Source: Nitrospinota bacterium
GTDB lineage: Bacteria > JADFOP01 > DATKYB01
DNA length: 64,000 nucleotides
Assembly: GCA_035528715.1 (NCBI GenBank)
Contig: DATKYB010000051.1
Location: 50 to 64,049 of the forward strand
Reading direction: 5' to 3'
This document shows positions 1-52,389 of this stretch, in pieces. Both the position numbers and the translations under genes were made by a program. Numbering within the stretch: position 1 is the first letter of the stretch; each line of letters begins with the position of its first letter. The notes under the pieces are model-generated. The model searched no databases. It had not been told where the DNA came from and saw nothing but the letters and a program-made list of their open reading frames with translations.

Positions 1-101
1 TTTATAATGGTGGCGGATTCAACCTGCCCGAATTGTTCTAAAGCCAGCCGTAAGTCCTCTTCGGTGACCTCGTACGACAAATTTCCTACATAGATCTTCA
101 T
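1..101 (-). CDS. RRM (RNP-1/RNP-2) RNA-binding protein, N-terminal part (3' end off window)
   Basis: Minus-strand translation from ATG at 101 gives MKIYVGNLSYEVTEEDLRLALEQFGQVESATII, with a classic RNP-2 motif IYVGNL. RBS GGAGA is 6 nt upstream. Confidence 0.75.
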   Translation of the reverse strand, partial: MKIYVGNLSYEVTEEDLRLALEQFGQVESATII

Positions 102-140
102 TCTAATCTCCTTTTGTAATAAATTATAAATTTTCACATC

Positions 141-196
141 GCCTAACAATTAATAGACGAATTTCTGATTTGTATCGGATTTTTTTCTATATTAAA
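141..196 (-). repeat. Conserved cassette-associated hairpin repeat, copy R1 (class A)
   Basis: Plus strand gcCTAACAATTAATAGACGAAtttct. In gene orientation ATAGAAAAAAA...TTCGTCTATTAATTGTTAGGC ends 41 nt before ATG at 101. The 5' arm 181-196 pairs with the conserved 3' arm. Confidence 0.6.
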
Positions 197-197
197 T

Positions 198-227
198 ATT
201 CTACTAAAAAAGCTAAAATTTTGTCAA
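198..227 (-). promoter_or_regulatory. sigma70-type promoter (TTGACA-N18-TAGAAT) reading toward class-A repeat R1 and the RRM gene
   Basis: -35 TTGACA is the rc of 222-227 and -10 TAGAAT is the rc of 198-203. The predicted TSS falls at the start of the R1 hairpin. Confidence 0.5.
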
Positions 228-278
228 TAGGGTTTTACAGATTTTGCCATTTTCAAATTCGCCTTGGGGTTCTTTGCA

Positions 279-358
279 AGGAAAATTCGCTTTGTGAATC
301 TCCGAAGGAAAATCCTTCGAAAAATTCCTCAGGAAAATCCCTGAAAAATCTAAGGGGG
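279..358. repeat. Phased direct repeats GAAAATYC x5 (period 11-14 bp, one 28 bp gap)
   Basis: ggaaaattcgc (279), ggaaaatcc (307), gaaaaattcc (319), ggaaaatccc (332), gaaaaatct (343). They lie between attC-1 and the promoter at 198-227. Confidence 0.45.
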
Positions 359-371
359 ATTTAAATTTAAA

Positions 372-501
372 GCCTAACGGTCGAGTTCAGGGACAAGAGC
401 CATAGTACGATATTAACAAGCAAAAAGATGTTTAACAATAAAATAATAGCAAACGCTAAAAAGGCATCGCTGGCTCTTGTTCCCTCTGCAACGATTGGTT
501 A
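372..501 (-). other. attC-like recombination site 1 (~130 bp)
   Basis: In gene orientation it starts at the stop codon with TAACCAATCG (TAAC inverse core). A long imperfect inverted repeat GGGAACAAGAGCCA / TGGCTCTTGTCCC has a bulged base. It ends with core GTTAGGC (rc of 372-378). Confidence 0.55.
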
Positions 502-867
502 GACAGCTTCCCGTACCCATTTCTTTGCAGCATCCATATCTGCATAGTCAAACTGCTTCACTTCAGCAGACACAAAATGATTAGCTATCATTGGCGCAAT
601 TGACATAAGTTTTGAATCAGTTACTGCCGCTACTCTTTTGATTTTTTTATGATGATCTTTAATGAATTTCATATGATGTGTGAATGCTCCGAAACTCTTC
701 CATCCAGGAAAGTCTTTGGTATGTATTATGATTCCGTTAACATAGCCTTTTTCATTAATGTATGCATCTATTTCTTTGGTAAGTCGTTCAAAATCAGTTT
801 GTTCAAGTGCGCCTAATGGCTCAATAATAACTATCCCCTCTGCTCTCATAATTTCAAATGAAATCAT
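499..867 (-). CDS. STAS/SEC14-domain (DUF3478, SpoIIAA-like) protein
   Basis: 122 aa with the family pattern FPGW...FIKDHHKKIKRVAAV...EVKQFD...AKKWV. RBS AAAAGGA is 8 nt upstream of ATG 867. attC follows directly after the stop. Confidence 0.65.
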   Translation of the reverse strand: MISFEIMRAEGIVIIEPLGALEQTDFERLTKEIDAYINEKGYVNGIIIHTKDFPGWKSFGAFTHHMKFIKDHHKKIKRVAAVTDSKLMSIAPMIANHFVSAEVKQFDYADMDAAKKWVREAV

Positions 868-886
868 ATTTAATCCTTTTCTTGTG

Positions 887-1018
887 GTCTAACGTCTGGA
901 TCATCGATGCACACCATGAAGCACGCTCAAGGGCATTAAAGCTAATTTGCAGACTATAAATAATCACACTCAAAAAAGTCGCTGCTGGTGTGCATTCGAA
1001 TGCATCCGGTTGTTAGAT
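887..1018 (-). other. attC-like recombination site 2 (~132 bp)
   Basis: Inverse core ATCTAAC (rc of 1012-1018) contains the TAA stop of the upstream gene. Stems GGATGCAT..TGCACACCA / TGGTGTGCATCGATGATCC. Core GTTAGAC (rc of 887-893) lies 19 nt before the next ATG. Confidence 0.6.
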
Positions 1019-1828
1019 TTTATTTATTTTTCTTGCCCTTTCTAAAAATTCATCAACATGAGCGAACATGAATAAATACTCTCCATCAGGGTTTTTGAAT
1101 TCTGCAATCATTGTAAATCGATATATCATTTGATTGAATTCCTTAAAATAAGAAAATGCGCCAGCAAATCGCTCAAGCTCAAGAATATTACCCCATAGAA
1201 CTGGAGCCAATAGAAATGGAGGATATGTTCCAGTTAATCCATTAAGCTTTGAATTGAGTTTCTTTGTTAATCTGTGTTCCAGAAGTTTTTGAAATTTTTC
1301 TGTGCTTTCCATACGATCAAAATCAAAGTTGATATTGAAGACTTCAACAAGTGTTTTATTACCATCTTTTTCAACTTCAAAATCAAATCTTTTTCCATTT
1401 GGTAATTTTTTTTCAACTTGAATAAGCGTTAATCCGTCATCTTTTAGAAGCTTACTGATTACCGCTAACTCTGCAACAAAACTTTGAAATTGTGACTGAT
1501 TATCGTTAAAATTTATAATCATTTTATGGCATAGATTAATTATCTGCTTTCTCGGATCACCTTTAACTTTTTGAAGGATTTCAGTTGCCGTATTATTAAT
1601 AAATTTAAGAAATGCCAGAGAAGCTTGATCTCCCTCATTTGCGTTCCACCAAAAATCAAACATAGTCTTTTCTGAAATAAATTCGCCTTTTTCTTTAATG
1701 TCTGATTCTACTTTTTTGTAACGTTCATAATATTTACTGCTAATATCAGAAAGCAATTTATTTGATGAAGATAAAGCATCATATATTGAAGGCAAGTAAT
1801 GTTGTAGCAGATCTATGGGCTCATTCAT
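1013..1828 (-). CDS. Hypothetical protein (cassette ORF; start re-set to MNEPIDLL downstream of attC-3)
   Basis: The six-frame ORF extends to 1990 but would run through attC-3 and overlap the preceding gene. The in-frame ATG at 1828 lies 15 nt after GTTAGAT. No recognisable domain. Confidence 0.5.
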   Translation of the reverse strand: MNEPIDLLQHYLPSIYDALSSSNKLLSDISSKYYERYKKVESDIKEKGEFISEKTMFDFWWNANEGDQASLAFLKFINNTATEILQKVKGDPRKQIINLCHKMIINFNDNQSQFQSFVAELAVISKLLKDDGLTLIQVEKKLPNGKRFDFEVEKDGNKTLVEVFNINFDFDRMESTEKFQKLLEHRLTKKLNSKLNGLTGTYPPFLLAPVLWGNILELERFAGAFSYFKEFNQMIYRFTMIAEFKNPDGEYLFMFAHVDEFLERARKINKI

Positions 1829-1842
1829 TTTAATTTTTAAAA

Positions 1843-1914
1843 ATCTAACATCGCGGTTCACTGGCCGGAAGGGCCGCAGGCCCTTACGGTCCATGTGAAA
1901 CCGCCTGGTTAGAG
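1843..1914 (-). other. attC-like recombination site 3 (72 bp)
   Basis: In gene orientation: cTCTAAC - TTTCACATGGACCGTAAGGGCC tgc GGCCCTTCCGGCCAGTGAA - GTTAGAT. It has a perfect GTTRRRY core and bulged bases, and is GC-rich in AT-rich surroundings. Confidence 0.65.
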
Positions 1915-1925
1915 GGCACTCTTTT

Positions 1926-2858
1926 CTATGTATATATTTCATCTGTGATTTCTTTACACAGGCCATCAAGTCCAGGATATATTTTACCACTCGTTATTCC
2001 AATTTTTGCCAATTCTTTTCTCAGGTCATTTTTTCTCTTGCCATCTATAACCAATTTGCAAAATATTCGTCGTCCGCAGCAGGGGCAAACAATGAGCTTT
2101 CCATCCTTATTAAACCCATCAGGTTTGTTCCCAAATAACGTAAAACATGATCTCTGTGCTGTTATCCTCGGATTCAGATGTGGTGGTAATAATGCTATGG
2201 GTGAAGCGGGCAGTCCCCAAACAGAGTGATCGTTTGGTGTAGTGATGTTTTCTAACCATCTATCCGTTGATTTTTCTCCTGGATAGAGAACCGTACCGCT
2301 GGACCAATGGTCTTCACCTCCGAGTTCCTCTAACGCATATGTAAGCAAAGTTGTAGGAGCTAGACATGTAACTATTGGGTTTTTTGTATCTTCCATCTCT
2401 GTTCCTAGAGAGAAAAATAGTGCTATAGCTGCATCCTGAGACCAATCAAGAAGTCTAGTTGATCCACCATAATGTTGGATAAGGAAATACCATGACCATG
2501 TATCTGAAATGCTAATCTCAGGCACTAAGGATCGCGCTCGCCTTTGAAATTCAAAAAAGTATTTGCGCTCTTTTTTTTGCTGCTCTGATATTTTATCGTT
2601 ATCGATGTTTCTATATAGCTTTGGCACAAGGCTACCAAAATCCTTCTGTTCGCCACGGAACCAAGTGGACTCAGTCGTACATAATCTGATGTATTTGAAA
2701 TATTCTTCAAGGTTCTTAATAGGACTGAGATTCAAATATCCTTTAGGATGCCATTCTCTGCGCAATGCTATCTTGGATTCTAATGTCTTTGCCTTTTTAT
2801 ATAATTCCCTTACGTCTTCCCGGTCTTTCTCGGGTATATAATCTATCCAATTATGCAT
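1926..2858 (-). CDS. FRG-domain protein
   Basis: 310 aa. STWFRGEQKDFGSLVPKLYR, LIQHYGGSTRLLDWSQD and AQRSCFTLFG match the FRG domain signature. A C-terminal CPCCGRR Cys cluster is present. RBS AAAGGGAAA is upstream of ATG 2858. Confidence 0.65.
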   Translation of the reverse strand: MHNWIDYIPEKDREDVRELYKKAKTLESKIALRREWHPKGYLNLSPIKNLEEYFKYIRLCTTESTWFRGEQKDFGSLVPKLYRNIDNDKISEQQKKERKYFFEFQRRARSLVPEISISDTWSWYFLIQHYGGSTRLLDWSQDAAIALFFSLGTEMEDTKNPIVTCLAPTTLLTYALEELGGEDHWSSGTVLYPGEKSTDRWLENITTPNDHSVWGLPASPIALLPPHLNPRITAQRSCFTLFGNKPDGFNKDGKLIVCPCCGRRIFCKLVIDGKRKNDLRKELAKIGITSGKIYPGLDGLCKEITDEIYT

Positions 2859-2912
2859 AATAATGTTTCCCTTTGCCTTGATTTAATACGGTGTGTATCT
2901 TCTTTATTTGAC

Positions 2913-2947
2913 CTCTAACAATTAATAGACGAAGTTCTTGTTTATGC
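2913..2947 (-). repeat. Class-A conserved repeat, copy R2 (truncated; begins at stop codon of 2950..3675)
   Basis: In gene orientation TGA-GTGCATAAACAAGAACTTCGTCTATTAATTGTTAGAG, 57 nt upstream of ATG 2858. Confidence 0.55.
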
Positions 2948-2949
2948 AC

Positions 2950-3675
2950 TCATAGTACTAACTTTATTAAGTCGGTTTTCTTTTTTTCTTTCCAAACATT
3001 CAAAACCTCCTCCTTGAAATCGTCATATGTTCCATCAATTATGATCTTTTCAACAGATTTAGAAGCGGTCATATCTTCATACGAAAATTGAAACGTAATT
3101 TCATAAGACTTTAGCGAATTTAATTCTTTAGAAAAGTGCATAAGATCGTTGTTCGTTATTACCACATCGATTTCACACCTCATTAAAATCCGGGAGTGTT
3201 TTTCAAGTTTATATGGGAAAATACATGATTTTAAAGAATCTAGTAAGTGTTTAAAGTGGATAGCGGCTGGTTTATTGCTCAGGAGGTCACTATTTGTTTT
3301 AAGCCCAATAATTTCAGGTCGATTTAAAATTATCATTTCATCACGATTGTTTATAAGATCGAAATCAATCGTAAAGTGTGTTTTTGAGTCAACGCGCCCA
3401 TCTCCTAAAAAAGCATAGGGCCTAAATGATGATGTTTTTTTTATAATTTTGAATTCGTTACCAGGTGGCATTTTTATTAAAGCCTGTTTCCAGGCTTTAT
3501 AACCAGCGTAAAATACACATAGTATTGCAAATAGGCCAGTAATTTTGCTTTTTGAAGAAAGATCAATAGGAGAGACACTAGCCACAAGAATAATAATTAA
3601 GGAAACTGCACTAAAATAATTGGTAGCTGACCTTAACAGTACCTTTATATATTCATTGAATTGGCTTTGTTTCAT
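2950..3675 (-). CDS. Hypothetical membrane-anchored protein
   Basis: 241 aa. The N-terminal hydrophobic segments (LIIILVASVS, LFAILCVFYAGY) suggest 1-2 TM helices. No recognisable domain. Confidence 0.5.
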   Translation of the reverse strand: MKQSQFNEYIKVLLRSATNYFSAVSLIIILVASVSPIDLSSKSKITGLFAILCVFYAGYKAWKQALIKMPPGNEFKIIKKTSSFRPYAFLGDGRVDSKTHFTIDFDLINNRDEMIILNRPEIIGLKTNSDLLSNKPAAIHFKHLLDSLKSCIFPYKLEKHSRILMRCEIDVVITNNDLMHFSKELNSLKSYEITFQFSYEDMTASKSVEKIIIDGTYDDFKEEVLNVWKEKKKTDLIKLVL

Positions 3676-3698
3676 AGTAGTTCAATCAAGTTTAAGGC

Positions 3699-3763
3699 CC
3701 ATAACGGGCTGCTCAGGGGCGGTGCGTTTTTTAGCGCCGTCCCTTGCAGCAGCAAGGTTATAA
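3699..3763 (-). other. attC-like recombination site 4 (65 bp)
   Basis: In gene orientation: TTATAACC (stop TAA inside) - CTTGCTGCTGCAAGGGACGGCGC taaaaaa CGCACCGCCCCTGAGCAGC - CCGTTATGG. The cores ATAAC/GTTAT are inverted. It is not a Rho-independent terminator (no U-tract). Confidence 0.6.
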
Positions 3764-4222
3764 GTCCTTTTCAATTTTATTTATTTTATCTTGAAGGTTT
3801 TTTTCTACTTCTTTAACAAGCAATTCGATCTCGGAAATTCGTGAGTCAATTTTATCGAAGTCATAGGCTCGGCATGACATTGGGAACCATTTCTTTGCAG
3901 GTGTACTCCAGTTTGCAACTTTCGGTCTTCGGTATTGATAATCCGTGTGTGCGAATAATTGATTACGAAGGTCAACCAATTCATCATGGAGCGGGCGAAG
4001 TCGTGAGGGAACAACCTTTTTTGTCAATGTGTGTTTTGGAATATGTGTACCCTTATTTACTGAAAAAGGGCGAACATAAGAAACTACAATATCTCTAAGG
4101 AGGCAATATCGGATATCTTTACGCCGATAGCGTTTTAGAATCCGAAGAGCATGCTTTGTTGAATCGAAGTCGATCGAGTAAAGCCTATAGAAATAATATT
4201 CTTCCATGTCTATATTTTTCAT
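3758..4222 (-). CDS. Hypothetical protein (154 aa, basic)
   Basis: ORF starts 15 nt after class-A repeat R3. No recognisable domain. Confidence 0.5.
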   Translation of the reverse strand: MKNIDMEEYYFYRLYSIDFDSTKHALRILKRYRRKDIRYCLLRDIVVSYVRPFSVNKGTHIPKHTLTKKVVPSRLRPLHDELVDLRNQLFAHTDYQYRRPKVANWSTPAKKWFPMSCRAYDFDKIDSRISEIELLVKEVEKNLQDKINKIEKDL

Positions 4223-4231
4223 AATTCAACT

Positions 4232-4284
4232 TCCAACAATTAATAGACGGATTTCTTATTTATTCGTTTTTCTCTGTTGTGGAG
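4232..4284 (-). repeat. Class-A conserved hairpin repeat, copy R3
   Basis: In gene orientation CACAACAGAGAAAAACGAATAAATAAGAAATCCGTCTATTAATTGTTGGAAG. Arms ACAGAGAAAAA / TCCGTCTATT are complementary. Confidence 0.6.
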
Positions 4285-4395
4285 GCTTCAAAACAGATGG
4301 AAAAAATGCAGAATAACGATAAGTAACAACTTTCTAGACCAACATTAAAATCCAGTCCAGAAGTAGAGCAGAATCAACAACAAATTTAAATTCAG

Positions 4396-4423
4396 AATAT
4401 ATTTAAAAAGAGAAAAAAGTCAA
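4396..4423 (-). promoter_or_regulatory. sigma70-type promoter (TTGACT-N16-TATATT) upstream of R3 and gene 3758..4222
   Basis: -35 is the rc of 4418-4423 and -10 is the rc of 4396-4401. It is preceded by AAGAACTTTGAATTGAAAAA, a sequence also found at the 5397-5425 promoter. Confidence 0.45.
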
Positions 4424-4445
4424 GGATATTTTTCAATTCAAAGTT

Positions 4446-4524
4446 CTTGTTATTTCCTCCTTCCCCTTCTGCTTTTTAGGTTTATGCTGAGGGGAGCGAG
4501 GATAAAGTGGAATGAGTTGTTAGA
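4446..4524 (-). other. attC-like recombination site 5 (R' end degenerate)
   Basis: Inverse core ATCTAAC (rc of 4518-4524) lies 12 nt after the stop. Stems CCTCGCTCCCCTCAGC / GCAGAAGGGGAAGGAGG. The 3' end reads AATAACAAGAACTTTG instead of GTTRRRY, which resembles the class-A loop sequence. Confidence 0.45.
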
Positions 4525-4534
4525 TGTTATTATT

Positions 4535-4777
4535 TTATGTTACAATTCGTAAGGCAAAATACGGAATAATATTAAAAACAAATATAGCTATTTTTAAAAA
4601 AGCCATGCCTGCATAATGAATTGCATCGAACGTTTCTACTGGAATCTTGAACCACTTGCTATGCATGCGATAAATCCAATCATGAGCAAATGCAAACAAT
4701 AAAAACCACCACAGCAATAATCCCATATTAATTACAGCGCACCATCCTAATGCTCCACGCAATATATCAACTGTCAT
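4535..4777 (-). CDS. Small membrane protein (80 aa, 2 predicted TM helices)
   Basis: Strong RBS AAAGGAGAAG is 5 nt upstream of ATG 4777. Hydrophobic segments WCAVINMGLLLWWFLLFAF and FLKIAIFVFNIIPYF. Confidence 0.55.
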   Translation of the reverse strand: MTVDILRGALGWCAVINMGLLLWWFLLFAFAHDWIYRMHSKWFKIPVETFDAIHYAGMAFLKIAIFVFNIIPYFALRIVT

Positions 4778-4817
4778 TTGTCTTCTCCTTTTCTGTAAAT
4801 ATTTTATTATTTATTTC

Positions 4818-4889
4818 ATATAACGCTAAAGCTCACTGGCGGGGGTGGAGCGCAGCAAAATCCCCGTCCAGTGCAGCACTTTGTTAGCC
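4818..4889 (-). other. attC-like recombination site 6 (72 bp)
   Basis: In gene orientation: GGCTAAC (contains the TAA stop) - GCTGCACTGGACGGGGA ... TCCACCCCCGCCAGTGAGC - GTTATAT. Bulged G and A bases in the stem. Confidence 0.6.
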
Positions 4890-5276
4890 ACCTAATTTAT
4901 TTTCAATAACTTCATGGACCTCCCAATTTTTGTCAATCCATATTCCAATTATTTCTATGTTTTCATATTGTTGACGAAGAAATTGTATTGCCTTTTGTAT
5001 GTGTATAATTTGATCATTTTGTGGTGCTGGATTTCCGGCACAATCGTGATGGCCAACAATAGCAACTCCTACGGAATTATGATGCTCAATTGAAATTTTC
5101 AGTCTTTCAAGAATCGACTGAATAGAGGTAATGCTTTTCTCTTCTGATAGAATCAGATTTGGGCCAGCTTCAGTAATGGAGTCAACATATTCAACATTGA
5201 ATCGTTTTTGCAGATATCTAATTACAGGTAATTGAACTCGCCCATCCATGCAATTGATAACTGTATAGAATCGCAT
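4884..5276 (-). CDS. Small protein with a possible beta-carbonic-anhydrase-like metal-binding pattern (CxDxR ... HxxC)
   Basis: 130 aa. The motifs NCMDGRV and VGHHDCAGN resemble the Cys-Asp-x-Arg / His-x-x-Cys zinc ligands of beta-class carbonic anhydrases, but the protein is shorter than typical CAs. RBS GAAGGAAAC is upstream of ATG 5276. Confidence 0.45.
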   Translation of the reverse strand: MRFYTVINCMDGRVQLPVIRYLQKRFNVEYVDSITEAGPNLILSEEKSITSIQSILERLKISIEHHNSVGVAIVGHHDCAGNPAPQNDQIIHIQKAIQFLRQQYENIEIIGIWIDKNWEVHEVIENKLGG

Positions 5277-5292
5277 ACCGTTTCCTTCTGGT

Positions 5293-5342
5293 GGCTAACA
5301 ATTAATAGACGAAGTTCTTGTTTATGCTTTTTCTCTATTGTG
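5293..5342 (-). repeat. Class-A conserved hairpin repeat, copy R4 (most complete)
   Basis: In gene orientation CACAATAGAGAAAAAGCATAAACAAGAACTTCGTCTATTAATTGTTAGCC, 23 nt before ATG 5276. Arms ACAATAGAGAAAAAG / CTTCGTCTATT-TGT. Confidence 0.6.
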
Positions 5343-5396
5343 ATAAATCTATATGTATTTTTGAAAATTATGCAATAAAATATCAAAATTCATGTA

Positions 5397-5425
5397 ATTA
5401 TATAAAATCAAAGGGTTTTTTGCAA
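5397..5425 (-). promoter_or_regulatory. sigma70-type promoter (TTGCAA-N17-TATAAT) for first in-window cassette
   Basis: Perfect -10 TATAAT (rc of 5397-5402) and -35 TTGCAA (5420-5425). The transcript leader (~110 nt) contains R4. Confidence 0.55.
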
Positions 5426-5610
5426 TTGAAAGTTCTTTTTGTTCTTGTCCCCTTTTAGATTTTTCAGGGATGCGGCACCAAAGGTCAAATACCGTAAAGA
5501 AAAATTTTAGAGCATTTAAAATCGTTCTGGTGTTCCTGTTTTCAAAGAGGTTACTTCTTAAATTTCAATATTTTCAATAAGTTATCCATCCATTTTATGC
5601 CATCAGTATC

Positions 5611-51333: not shown

Positions 51334-52389
51334 ATGAAAAAATCAGATAAAAAATTAGATACAGAAAAGGATAGTTTGGTTATCAGTAAAGAAGATAGAA
51401 GCCTTGATCTAAGGCTTCGACCAAGAACGTTTGATGAATATATTGGTCAAGAGAAGATTAAGGAAAGTTTAAAAATTTTTATTCAGGCTGCTAGGGAAAG
51501 GTCTGAATCTTTGGACCATGTTCTTTTGTATGGTCCCCCTGGATTAGGAAAAACAACCTTAGCCCATATTATTTCTTTTGAGATGAAAGTGAATATAAGA
51601 AGTACATCTGGACCATTGATTGATAGAACAGGTGATTTAGCAGCAATACTGACGAATTTGGCTGACCATGACATATTGTTTATTGATGAGATCCATAGAT
51701 TACCTCATATTATCGAAGAAATGCTCTATTCTGCCATGGAAGATTTTAAGTTAGATATAATAATCGGACAGGGGCCAAGTGCGAAAACAGTAAAATTAGA
51801 TTTACCAAGATTCACCCTTATTGGAGCCACAACAAGGGCTGGTCTTTTAACATCTCCCTTAAGAGATAGATTTGGGGTGATTCACAGGATAGAATATTAT
51901 AACAAGGAGGAATTACTCTTAGTTGTTAAGAGGTCTGCAGATATACTTGGTATTCAAATAGACCATGAAGGCGCAAGTGAAATAGCAAAACGCGCAAGAG
52001 GTACACCAAGGGTAGCAAATAGAATTTTAAAAAGGGTTAGAGATTTCGCACAGGTTAAGGAAGACGGCAAGATTTCTAAAGAGGTAGCGAAGAGAGCATT
52101 GCAAATGTTAGAGGTAGATGAGTCAGGGTTGGACAAGATGGATAGAAAATTGTTATTGACCATAATAGAAAAATTTAATGGGGGTCCGGTTGGTATAGAG
52201 ACTTTAGCAACAGCATTGAATGAAGAAAAGGATACTATTGAAGATATATATGAACCCTTTCTCATTCAATGTGGGTATATGTGTAGGACACAGAGGGGAA
52301 GAGTAACTACTCCACTGGCCTATAAGCATCTTGGAATCTGTTCTCAAGAGGATAATTCTATCAACAATTTACAGGAAAAATTGTTATAG
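51334..52389 (+). CDS. ruvB: Holliday junction branch migration helicase RuvB
   Basis: [12 protein letters not shown], Walker [18 protein letters not shown]. Confidence 0.95.

Follow-up and report, generated by a model that had tools for sequence, protein, structure and literature searches.

Integrons typically carry one attI site, located beside the integrase gene (PMC9024848). The attI is unknown for most integrons (PMC4889954), and attI sites are essentially unknown outside the clinical classes (PMC4889954; PMC9024848). Clusters of attC sites that lack an integron integrase (CALINs; Cury et al. 2016, PMC4889954) are more numerous than complete integrons, and their origins are unsettled, with integrase loss, rearrangement and non-classical insertion at attG sites all being considered (PMC4889954; bioRxiv 10.1101/2022.09.11.507474). 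The cassette promoter (Pc) of integrons is unable to drive CALIN cassettes (PMC4889954). With attI sites unknown outside the clinical classes, whether CALINs keep an attI could not be asked. Within arrays, partial attI copies have been described only in clinical mobile integrons; these deltaattI-type cassettes, found in class 1 and class 2 integrons, recombine with IntI1 (Gonzales Machuca et al. 2026, PMC12901181). Here, we analyzed a 64-kb window (the whole 64,000-nucleotide stretch of contig DATKYB010000051.1) and found at its left end an array of integron-type gene cassettes with five attC sites, four copies of an attI-type repeat, D1, and no adjoining integrase gene. One platform, consisting of an attI copy with a promoter-like site upstream, heads the array beside dciA, and its interior holds two full platforms and a short attI copy. 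We consider it quite likely that window positions 1-5471, together with about 1.8 kb further left, are a CALIN built on such attI-plus-promoter platforms and served by an integrase in trans.

D1 is a direct repeat that the first-pass annotation of the window had missed. Its coding-strand sequence is ...AAGAAnTTCGTCTATTAATTG/TT, where the slash marks the crossover point, and it occurs in four copies in the window against none expected by chance. The copies lie 12-58 nt upstream of the ATG of the open reading frames (ORFs) H, E, C and A, and head or interrupt the array (Table 1). Scanning JGI metagenomes for a 22-nt D1 pattern yielded 37 further contigs. When these were stacked, the upstream conservation reached far past the pattern and into a promoter-like region, and ended directly past GTT, after which the sequence and the gene differed from contig to contig. 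The base following GTT was A or G in approximately 90% of the copies (A in about three quarters), as in the TTRRRY pattern of attC right boxes. The upstream neighbors were mostly housekeeping genes (rimM-trmD-rnhB, typA, dxr, cinA, dciA). Where at least 600 nt of upstream sequence was available, 26 of 27 contigs had housekeeping or other genes there and no integrase, and on this basis we read the locus as a CALIN built on integrase-less platforms and served in trans. The attC-model matches in the D1 contigs were all co-oriented with D1 and, with a single exception, lay downstream of it; for short canonical hairpins, the counts were eight downstream and none upstream. The pattern was absent from the viral contigs scanned.

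The link to an integrase came from contig L109, in which the exact D1 core lies approximately 80-140 nt from the start of a divergent intI gene. The product of this gene scored 408.5 bits on the integron-integrase model TIGR02249 (cutoff 265) and carries the IntI-specific insertion. D1-like sites of the form A..AAGTT[C/G]GTATATTAATTGTT, ending at the crossover point, were located 127-152 nt from the intI ATG at the heads of divergent arrays in seven further lineages (L115, L117/118, L119/120, L121-123, L125-127, L128, and L129). In the window no intI adjoins D1, and a tblastn search with a TIGR02249-positive IntI found no homologue in the 64 kb, as the first-pass annotation had stated, or in the 18.5-kb contig L001 that continues the window to the left. 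The adjacency to intI, the stop of conservation at G/TT and the one-cassette difference described below together indicate that D1, judged by sequence, is the attI site of an IntI clade, to which integrases of this clade would be expected to bind. A role of D1 as a miniature attC was rejected, because it has no stable fold (z of about 0 to +0.9). Platforms 1 and 2 also contain a degenerate upstream repeat, D5 (AAGAACTTTCAATTG as compared with AAGAACTTCGTCTATTAATTG in D1), which is a hint of accessory attI repeats. As a separate observation, a G+C-rich palindrome (GTTCCGGCGCGCTGCGCACGCCGGAAC or GTTGCCGCCGCGCTGCGCGCGACGGCAAC) stands first after the attI crossover G/TT in L109 (1621-1650), L128, L115, L125, and the solo platform L094.

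Cassette turnover at D1 was seen by comparison with L099, a contig from a different metagenome that is 95.4% identical to the window across dciA-TPR-DUF4292-ispE and the outer platform 1. In L099, D1 is joined at G/TT straight to cassette B (97.2% identical), and the window contains exactly 475 nt more (5298..4824), TTAGCC...ORF A...attC_A...G. Both breakpoints of cassette A fall at G/TT and are canonical crossover points, so the difference fits an insertion or excision by attI × attC recombination. Three pairs of solo platforms (L104/L106, L108/L113, L110/L112) were 80-98% identical upstream and diverged right past G/TT. L122 and L123, which encode identical IntI proteins, share their sequence up to ...CGTT/AGGC and then carry different cassettes. 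In total, we counted five independent junction polymorphisms at D1. The comparison of relatives for cassette presence and absence had been proposed in the first-pass annotation, which named invariance of the locus as evidence against integron origin; L099, lacking exactly cassette A, spoke for the proposal. A GTDB genome scan with the TPR protein returned only distant relatives (38-44% identity), which keep dciA-TPR-DUF4292-ispE and have none of the cassettes; they confirm the core synteny and are too distant for dating the insertion. Between L099 (14143-14186) and the window (5376-5299), the flanks were 95-97% identical, and the last ~45 nt ahead of the D1 core differed strongly. This divergent stretch resembles other D1 copies, which suggests, at the level of sequence similarity, that platform copies have undergone exchange or conversion.

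Each of the five attC sites folds into one imperfect hairpin bounded by TAAC and GTTA; the sites lie within a few bases of where the palindromes had been annotated and are, in agreement with that annotation, rich in G+C (56-60% versus ~35% in the surroundings). DNA folding gave z-scores of -2.3 to -6.9. On the coding strand, the order of elements is a 7-nt left box, a 5-nt spacer, 3 bp, an extra base, and more extra bases after 3 or 6 bp; the variable loop is followed by the matching arm without extra bases, a 6-nt spacer and GTTRRRY. The AAC and GTT of the box pairs were invariant, and the outer positions were partly degenerate (TTATAAC, GTTATGG, GTTATAT). attC_C deviates in having 9 nt, not 8, from the left box to the first extra base. 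The extra bases were always in the 5' arm of the coding strand (5/5 sites), corresponding to the 3' arm of the window plus strand. Since the plus strand is the complement of the coding strand, it represents the attC 'bottom' strand. Classical sites such as attC-aadA7 have the same arm geometry. In geometry and orientation, the five sites are canonical integron attC sites.

Scanning the 64 kb for TAAC...GTTA hairpins revealed simple long intergenic stems solely in the array. A plain minimum-free-energy threshold was unspecific, with rRNA and coding regions scoring as well; therefore, a single-stem criterion and later a covariance model were added. This model, R1, was trained on seven sites from unrelated metagenome contigs, with two sites resembling those of the window excluded, and was run on both strands with filters off. 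The top three matches were attC_A, attC_E and attC_C, all full length and on the minus strand, and everything below them had E > 1. As a substitute for the covariance search suggested in the first-pass annotation, R1 matched three of the five sites, on the correct strand. A match at 51845-51931 (13 bits, E = 1.5) was discarded as a false positive within the coding region of ruvB. The two sites with 60-70-nt loops scored poorly (E = 4.6 and no match, respectively) owing to the loop-length penalty; by hand inspection they have the same arm geometry, and a homologue of the site at 887-1018 in L106 reached 18.7 bits. Applied to the complete intI-bearing integrons L115, L121-123 and L125, R1 detected 2-5 sites each, always on the cassette strand. 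In an alignment of 29 distinct sites, 89% of the cells paired, compared with 74% in shuffles and 22-49% with the partners slid, and compensatory changes occurred in 14 of 19 pairs; being fitted to the model, this alignment leans towards structure. Rfam at gathering thresholds reported only the rRNA operon and tRNAs in the window and no attC-type family.

The three best sigma-70-like matches in 5.7 kb were distributed one per platform, on the minus strand and facing the cassettes; the match in platform 3 (11/12) was the best of them. Three of the four D1 copies thereby carry a promoter-like site upstream, and the platforms are predicted to have promoter activity. They are bordered by motif M, which is the inner end of an element of ~170-190 nt, E. 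At left ends, element E is in forward orientation (L082, L096, L102, L107); at right ends, it follows G/TTAGGCTTTAAATTTAAAT and is inverted (L001, 12612-12800; L085; L088; L105). In its fold, the outer hairpin is terminator-like, motif M pairs over a long range with CCCC.TTGCTTTT, and the inner stem co-varies, with compensatory changes (GAGGGAGG with CCTCCCTC, GAGGCAAA with TTTGCCTC, and GAAGCAGC with GCTGCTTC). E had no Rfam match; at E <= 1, six E contigs gave two sub-threshold matches unrelated to it. No locus with a full E at both ends and no transposase linked to E was seen. Possible roles for E are those of an insulator, a terminator or one end of a mobile element that is non-autonomous. 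Simple nested or tandem platform insertion was rejected, as the variants of M are interleaved (M1>, M2>, <M1, <M2), an order that it does not predict.

Compared with the described systems, the locus is closest to a CALIN, with which it shares two or more co-oriented attC sites on the same strand, small promoterless ORFs and the lack of a nearby intI, the adjacent integrase gene of a complete integron being absent. CALINs are by definition without a recognized attI, whereas here four attI copies are present, three of them with promoter-like sites. With the sedentary chromosomal integron (intI-attI-Pc-array), represented in this clade by L109, L115, L121-123, L125, L128 and L129, the locus has in common the attI family, the attC geometry, the G/TT crossover and a promoter, here predicted, upstream of attI, but no intI stands beside its attI. 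Cassette D with D1b is similar to the deltaattI cassettes in having, at the 3' end of its ORF, a partial attI and not an attC; deltaattI cassettes, however, are rare, reside inside complete clinical integrons, have no promoter modules and are not dispersed at integrase-less loci. The attG sites implicated in the formation of CALINs and of single attC sites lacking integron integrase (SALINs) also place cassettes outside a complete integron, through the trans action of an integrase (Loot et al., bioRxiv 10.1101/2022.09.11.507474). They are diverse and unlike attI in sequence and structure, while the target here is a conserved bona fide attI with its own promoter-like site.

Integrons flanked by miniature inverted-repeat transposable elements or other inverted repeats exist (integron mobilization units; the IRi and IRt of Tn402). 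Similarly, the present platforms and arrays are bordered by the conserved E with M innermost, forward on the left and inverted on the right; they differ in that neither a locus with a full E at both ends nor a linked transposase was seen, and in an E fold that co-varies. A literature search, which was not exhaustive, found no report of integrase-less attI platforms. The findings define by sequence an attI family that is tied to an integrase clade, and the same site occurs solo at many loci with turnover at the crossover point. This suggests that integrase-less landing pads can collect cassettes via an integrase encoded elsewhere. If this is general, an integron need not be one locus, and one integrase could serve many expression-ready landing pads, for which D1 is a searchable motif in sediment bacteria.

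The most economical mechanism would be the usual chemistry of IntI, working in trans. An integron integrase of the L109 clade would be encoded elsewhere in the genome or supplied transiently, and would recombine folded attC bottom strands with double-stranded D1 at G/TT. Cassettes would thereby be inserted or removed at the landing pads, and the platform promoters would express the nearest ones. Both the trans action of IntI in this organism and the way in which the platform copies multiplied or spread are inferences. We regard as plausible, if just short of probable, a wider picture of 'distributed' integrons, in which possibly mobile attI-plus-promoter modules bordered by E and M are seeded beside housekeeping genes, even in tandem within one array, and a single IntI elsewhere loads and unloads them all. 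This would offer a concrete origin for at least some CALINs, and would make CALIN cassettes expressible from their own Pc-like promoters.

An integrase-less array could also be a fossil, that is, a classical integron whose intI was deleted, with D1 copies and cassettes now inert. Integrase loss is one standard explanation of CALINs, there is no IntI within 72 kb (the window and 8 kb further left), and decay is visible in the half attC of cassette B, the 33-nt attI stub in cassette D and the degenerate last attC. Yet the window and L099, only ~5% diverged, differ by one cassette exactly at G/TT, and three other solo platforms have different first cassettes in orthologous contexts. The gap between dciA and the platform is only ~180 nt with no intI remnant, and with 26 of 27 D1 copies solo at many loci beside housekeeping genes, many independent clean deletions would be needed; we therefore judge the fossil improbable. 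Four observations would be left unexplained if D1 and its upstream sequence were a mobile or widely conserved promoter or 5'-leader module, whose conservation merely ends at GTT: the fixed position beside intI in eight lineages, the TTRRRY pattern past G, the co-oriented downstream attC sites, and the same cassette lying behind D1 in one genome and behind an attC right box in another, with the junction at the identical nucleotide. A leader of this kind would account for the promoter-like hexamers 50-110 nt upstream of D1, its constant placement 12-58 nt upstream of an ATG and its lack of a stable fold; we consider it largely refuted and very unlikely. As for the palindromes, they might be repetitive extragenic palindromic (REP)-like repeats or intrinsic terminators unrelated to integrons, being G+C-rich hairpins at gene 3' ends, one of which includes a partial terminator-like match (3708-3723). 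Terminator-like matches were, however, at chance level (3 versus 3.4 expected), in line with the first-pass annotation, which had argued against terminators. The palindromes form no common sequence family, neither the hairpin scan nor R1 saw REP-like scatter through the window, and the strand-specific bulge geometry with RYYYAAC and GTTRRRY boxes matches attC. This possibility is already refuted, and we give it practically no weight.

Several points weigh against the CALIN served in trans that we prefer. No IntI is known for this organism, and the only pair of an exact D1 with intI, in L109, comes from a contig of 46% G+C versus 36% here, and thus probably from another organism. The 37 contigs were selected by the 22-nt pattern, and conservation within it is there by construction; only the sequence outside is informative. 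Two of the five attC sites rest on hand anatomy and folding and not on a significant model score. The cassette A event could equally have been an insertion or an excision, and the promoters are consensus matches only. Finally, there are the interleaved order of M and a four-fold multiplication of attI in one array without a demonstrated mechanism. The first-pass annotation had itself seen an integrase-less integron array, and the attC geometry, the R1 matches and the L099 difference substantiate this core of it.

Seven complete ORFs and the beginning of another, every one on the minus strand, occupy region 1-5480. Consequently, the array has its head on the right, at position 5299 beside dciA, and not on the left. 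To the right, the divergent dciA, the TPR gene, DUF4292 and ispE follow on the plus strand, and the remainder of the window consists of housekeeping loci (the rRNA operon, ruvCAB, queA and others). Across a 9-kb overlap, L001 matches the window with 100% identity. Past the left window edge, it contains the RRM gene with a canonical attC and a cytochrome c gene whose attC is decayed; the array then closes with G/TTAGGCTTTAAATTTAAAT and an inverted full-length E, beyond which lie osmC, a sigma-54 regulator and a histidine kinase. The array thus extends at least two cassettes, or ~1.8 kb, past the edge, to ~9 cassettes in all. An intI beyond position 1 had been considered, but these 8 kb hold two cassettes, osmC and two-component genes without an integrase. 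A thermophile lineage, also proposed earlier, has no support: the NCBI label of identical proteins is a Nitrospinota metagenome-assembled genome (MAG). In ORFs A, C, F and G, the left attC box includes the TAA stop, which in B and E precedes the box by 9-11 nt. The distance from the right attC box to the next ATG was 14-40 nt, a wider range than the 15-25 nt first given. The features are collected in Table 1. The first 27 nt of the array-end sequence, counted with the preceding G, are identical to the closers of the whole L001 and L085 arrays. The RRM gene (L001 10767-11195) is a cassette with its own strong promoter-like site, and encodes a glycine/arginine-rich tail (GGYGG/RGG repeats).

Table 1. 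Features of the cassette array, from its head towards the left edge of the window; square brackets in attC sequences mark extra bases, and a slash in D1 sequences or between coordinates marks the crossover.
Feature	Position	Strand	Description
Platform 1 (X1)	5299..5471	minus	array head beside divergent dciA; crossover 5299/5298
Motif M of X1	5449-5471		
Promoter-like site of X1	5425..5397	minus	TTGCAA-17-TATAAT
D5 of X1	5404-5443		degenerate D1-like repeat
D1d	5293-5332	minus	attI-type, ...GCATAAACAAGAACTTCGTCTATTAATTG/TTAGCC, in X1
Cassette A	4824..5298	minus	475 nt; ORF A and attC_A
ORF A	5276..4884	minus	130 aa, Pro_CA_2
attC_A	4889..4818	minus	GGCTAAC aaagt GCT[G]CACTGG[A]CGGGG...CCCCCG-CCAGTG-AGC tttagc GTTATAT; 41.2 bits, E = 8e-8
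Cassette B	4503..4823	minus	ORF B and 5' half of its own attC (4525..4503)
ORF B	4777..4535	minus	80 aa, DUF6868
Platform 2 (X2)	4237..4502	minus	truncated E; promoter-like TTGACT-16-TATATT, 4423..4396; D1c
D1c	4231-4270	minus	attI copy; crossover 4237/4236, then TTGGAA
Cassette C	3705..4236	minus	532 nt; ORF C and attC_C
ORF C	4222..3758	minus	154 aa, no family
attC_C	3763..3699	minus	TTATAAC ... GTTATGG; two extra bases 6 bp apart; 16.9 bits, E = 0.15
Cassette D	2920..3704	minus	785 nt; ORF D; ends in short attI copy D1b, not attC
ORF D	3675..2950	minus	241 aa, no family
D1b	2913-2952	minus	~33 nt attI homology; crossover 2919/2918
Cassette E	1849..2918	minus	1070 nt; ORF E and attC_E
ORF E	2858..1926	minus	310 aa, FRG domain
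attC_E	1914..1843	minus	CTCTAAC caggc GGT[T]TCAC[A]TGG[A]CCG ... GTTAGAT; z = -6.9; 20.5 bits, E = 0.017
Cassette F	893..1848	minus	956 nt; ORF F and attC_F
ORF F	1828..1013	minus	271 aa, no family
attC_F	1018..887	minus	ATCTAAC aaccg GAT[G]CAT[T]CGA[A]TGCACACCA ... GTTAGAC; 132 nt, long loop
Cassette G	378..892	minus	515 nt; ORF G and attC_G
ORF G	867..499	minus	122 aa, SpoIIAA-like/STAS
attC_G	504..372	minus	GTCTAAC caatc GTT[G]CAG[A]GGG[A]ACAAGAGCCA ... GTTAGGC; 133 nt, long loop; partial match E = 4.6
Array-end sequence and platform 3 (X3)	148..377	minus	TTAGGCTTTAAATTTAAAT at 377..359; inverted motif M at 337-358
Promoter-like site of X3	227..198	minus	TTGACA-18-TAGAAT; 11/12, best in region
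D1a	141-180	minus	attI copy; crossover 147/146
Cassette H, start	1..146	minus	RRM-type gene; continues in L001
ORF H	ATG at 103, off left edge	minus	RRM-type RNA-binding protein
attC of cassette H	in L001		GCCTAAC aagcc GCT[C]AAG[A]CCG[A]CC ... GTTGGAT; 21.7 bits, E = 0.027

Six attC sites had originally been counted. Five of them stand, and the remaining one (4446-4524) proved to be half an attC fused to a truncated copy of element E. What is present is a left box, ATCTAAC (4519-4525), together with the canonical 5' arm aactc ATT[C]CACTTT[A]; a right box is missing, and the site folds weakly (z = -2.0) and had no R1 match. The hairpin at 4455-4502 within it is the inner end of the truncated E, and an interpretation of 4446-4524 together with D1c as one giant 290-nt attC was dropped for this reason. 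The same DUF6868 gene, leader and half-site occur in L130 as a cassette behind a different attC (protein P0185, labeled as an Omnitrophica MAG). Because the left box and arm recur behind DUF6868 genes in L130 and L132, they belong to the own attC of cassette B, cut short here. Intact copies of this attC were not recovered; the 5' half in L130 and L132 ends at an array or contig edge. The DUF6868 gene of L130 is located at 4001-4243. Homologues 70-93% identical were present in MAGs labeled Omnitrophica, Aureabacteria, Thermodesulfobacteriota, Bacteroidia and Deltaproteobacteria (P0181-P0299), and in L133-135 the gene stands in a non-cassette setting beside DUF3175, NTPase and RRM genes.

The relatives of the L109 integrase form a large clade of proteins 430-450 aa long, and more than 7,900 of the 8,000 candidates scored had E <= 1e-40. 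The clade proteins (L109 126-1466; P0001-P0120) have an N-terminal extension of ~110 aa ahead of the model-matching residues 113-430. In several complete integrons, a PIF1/AAA_30 helicase gene that includes a WYL domain (L115 6340-7917; L125 4945-6469; L126 1698-3302; L127 1612-3198) comes after intI, overlapping it by a few bases, and rimP-nusA comes next; intI and the helicase gene may form an operon. Y1-type transposase genes (PF01797) were found inside arrays beside intI (L119 1836-2501; L120 1022-1687; L124 1260-1925), and the L130 array includes a group II intron reverse transcriptase (RVT_1 and GIIM, 764-2080).

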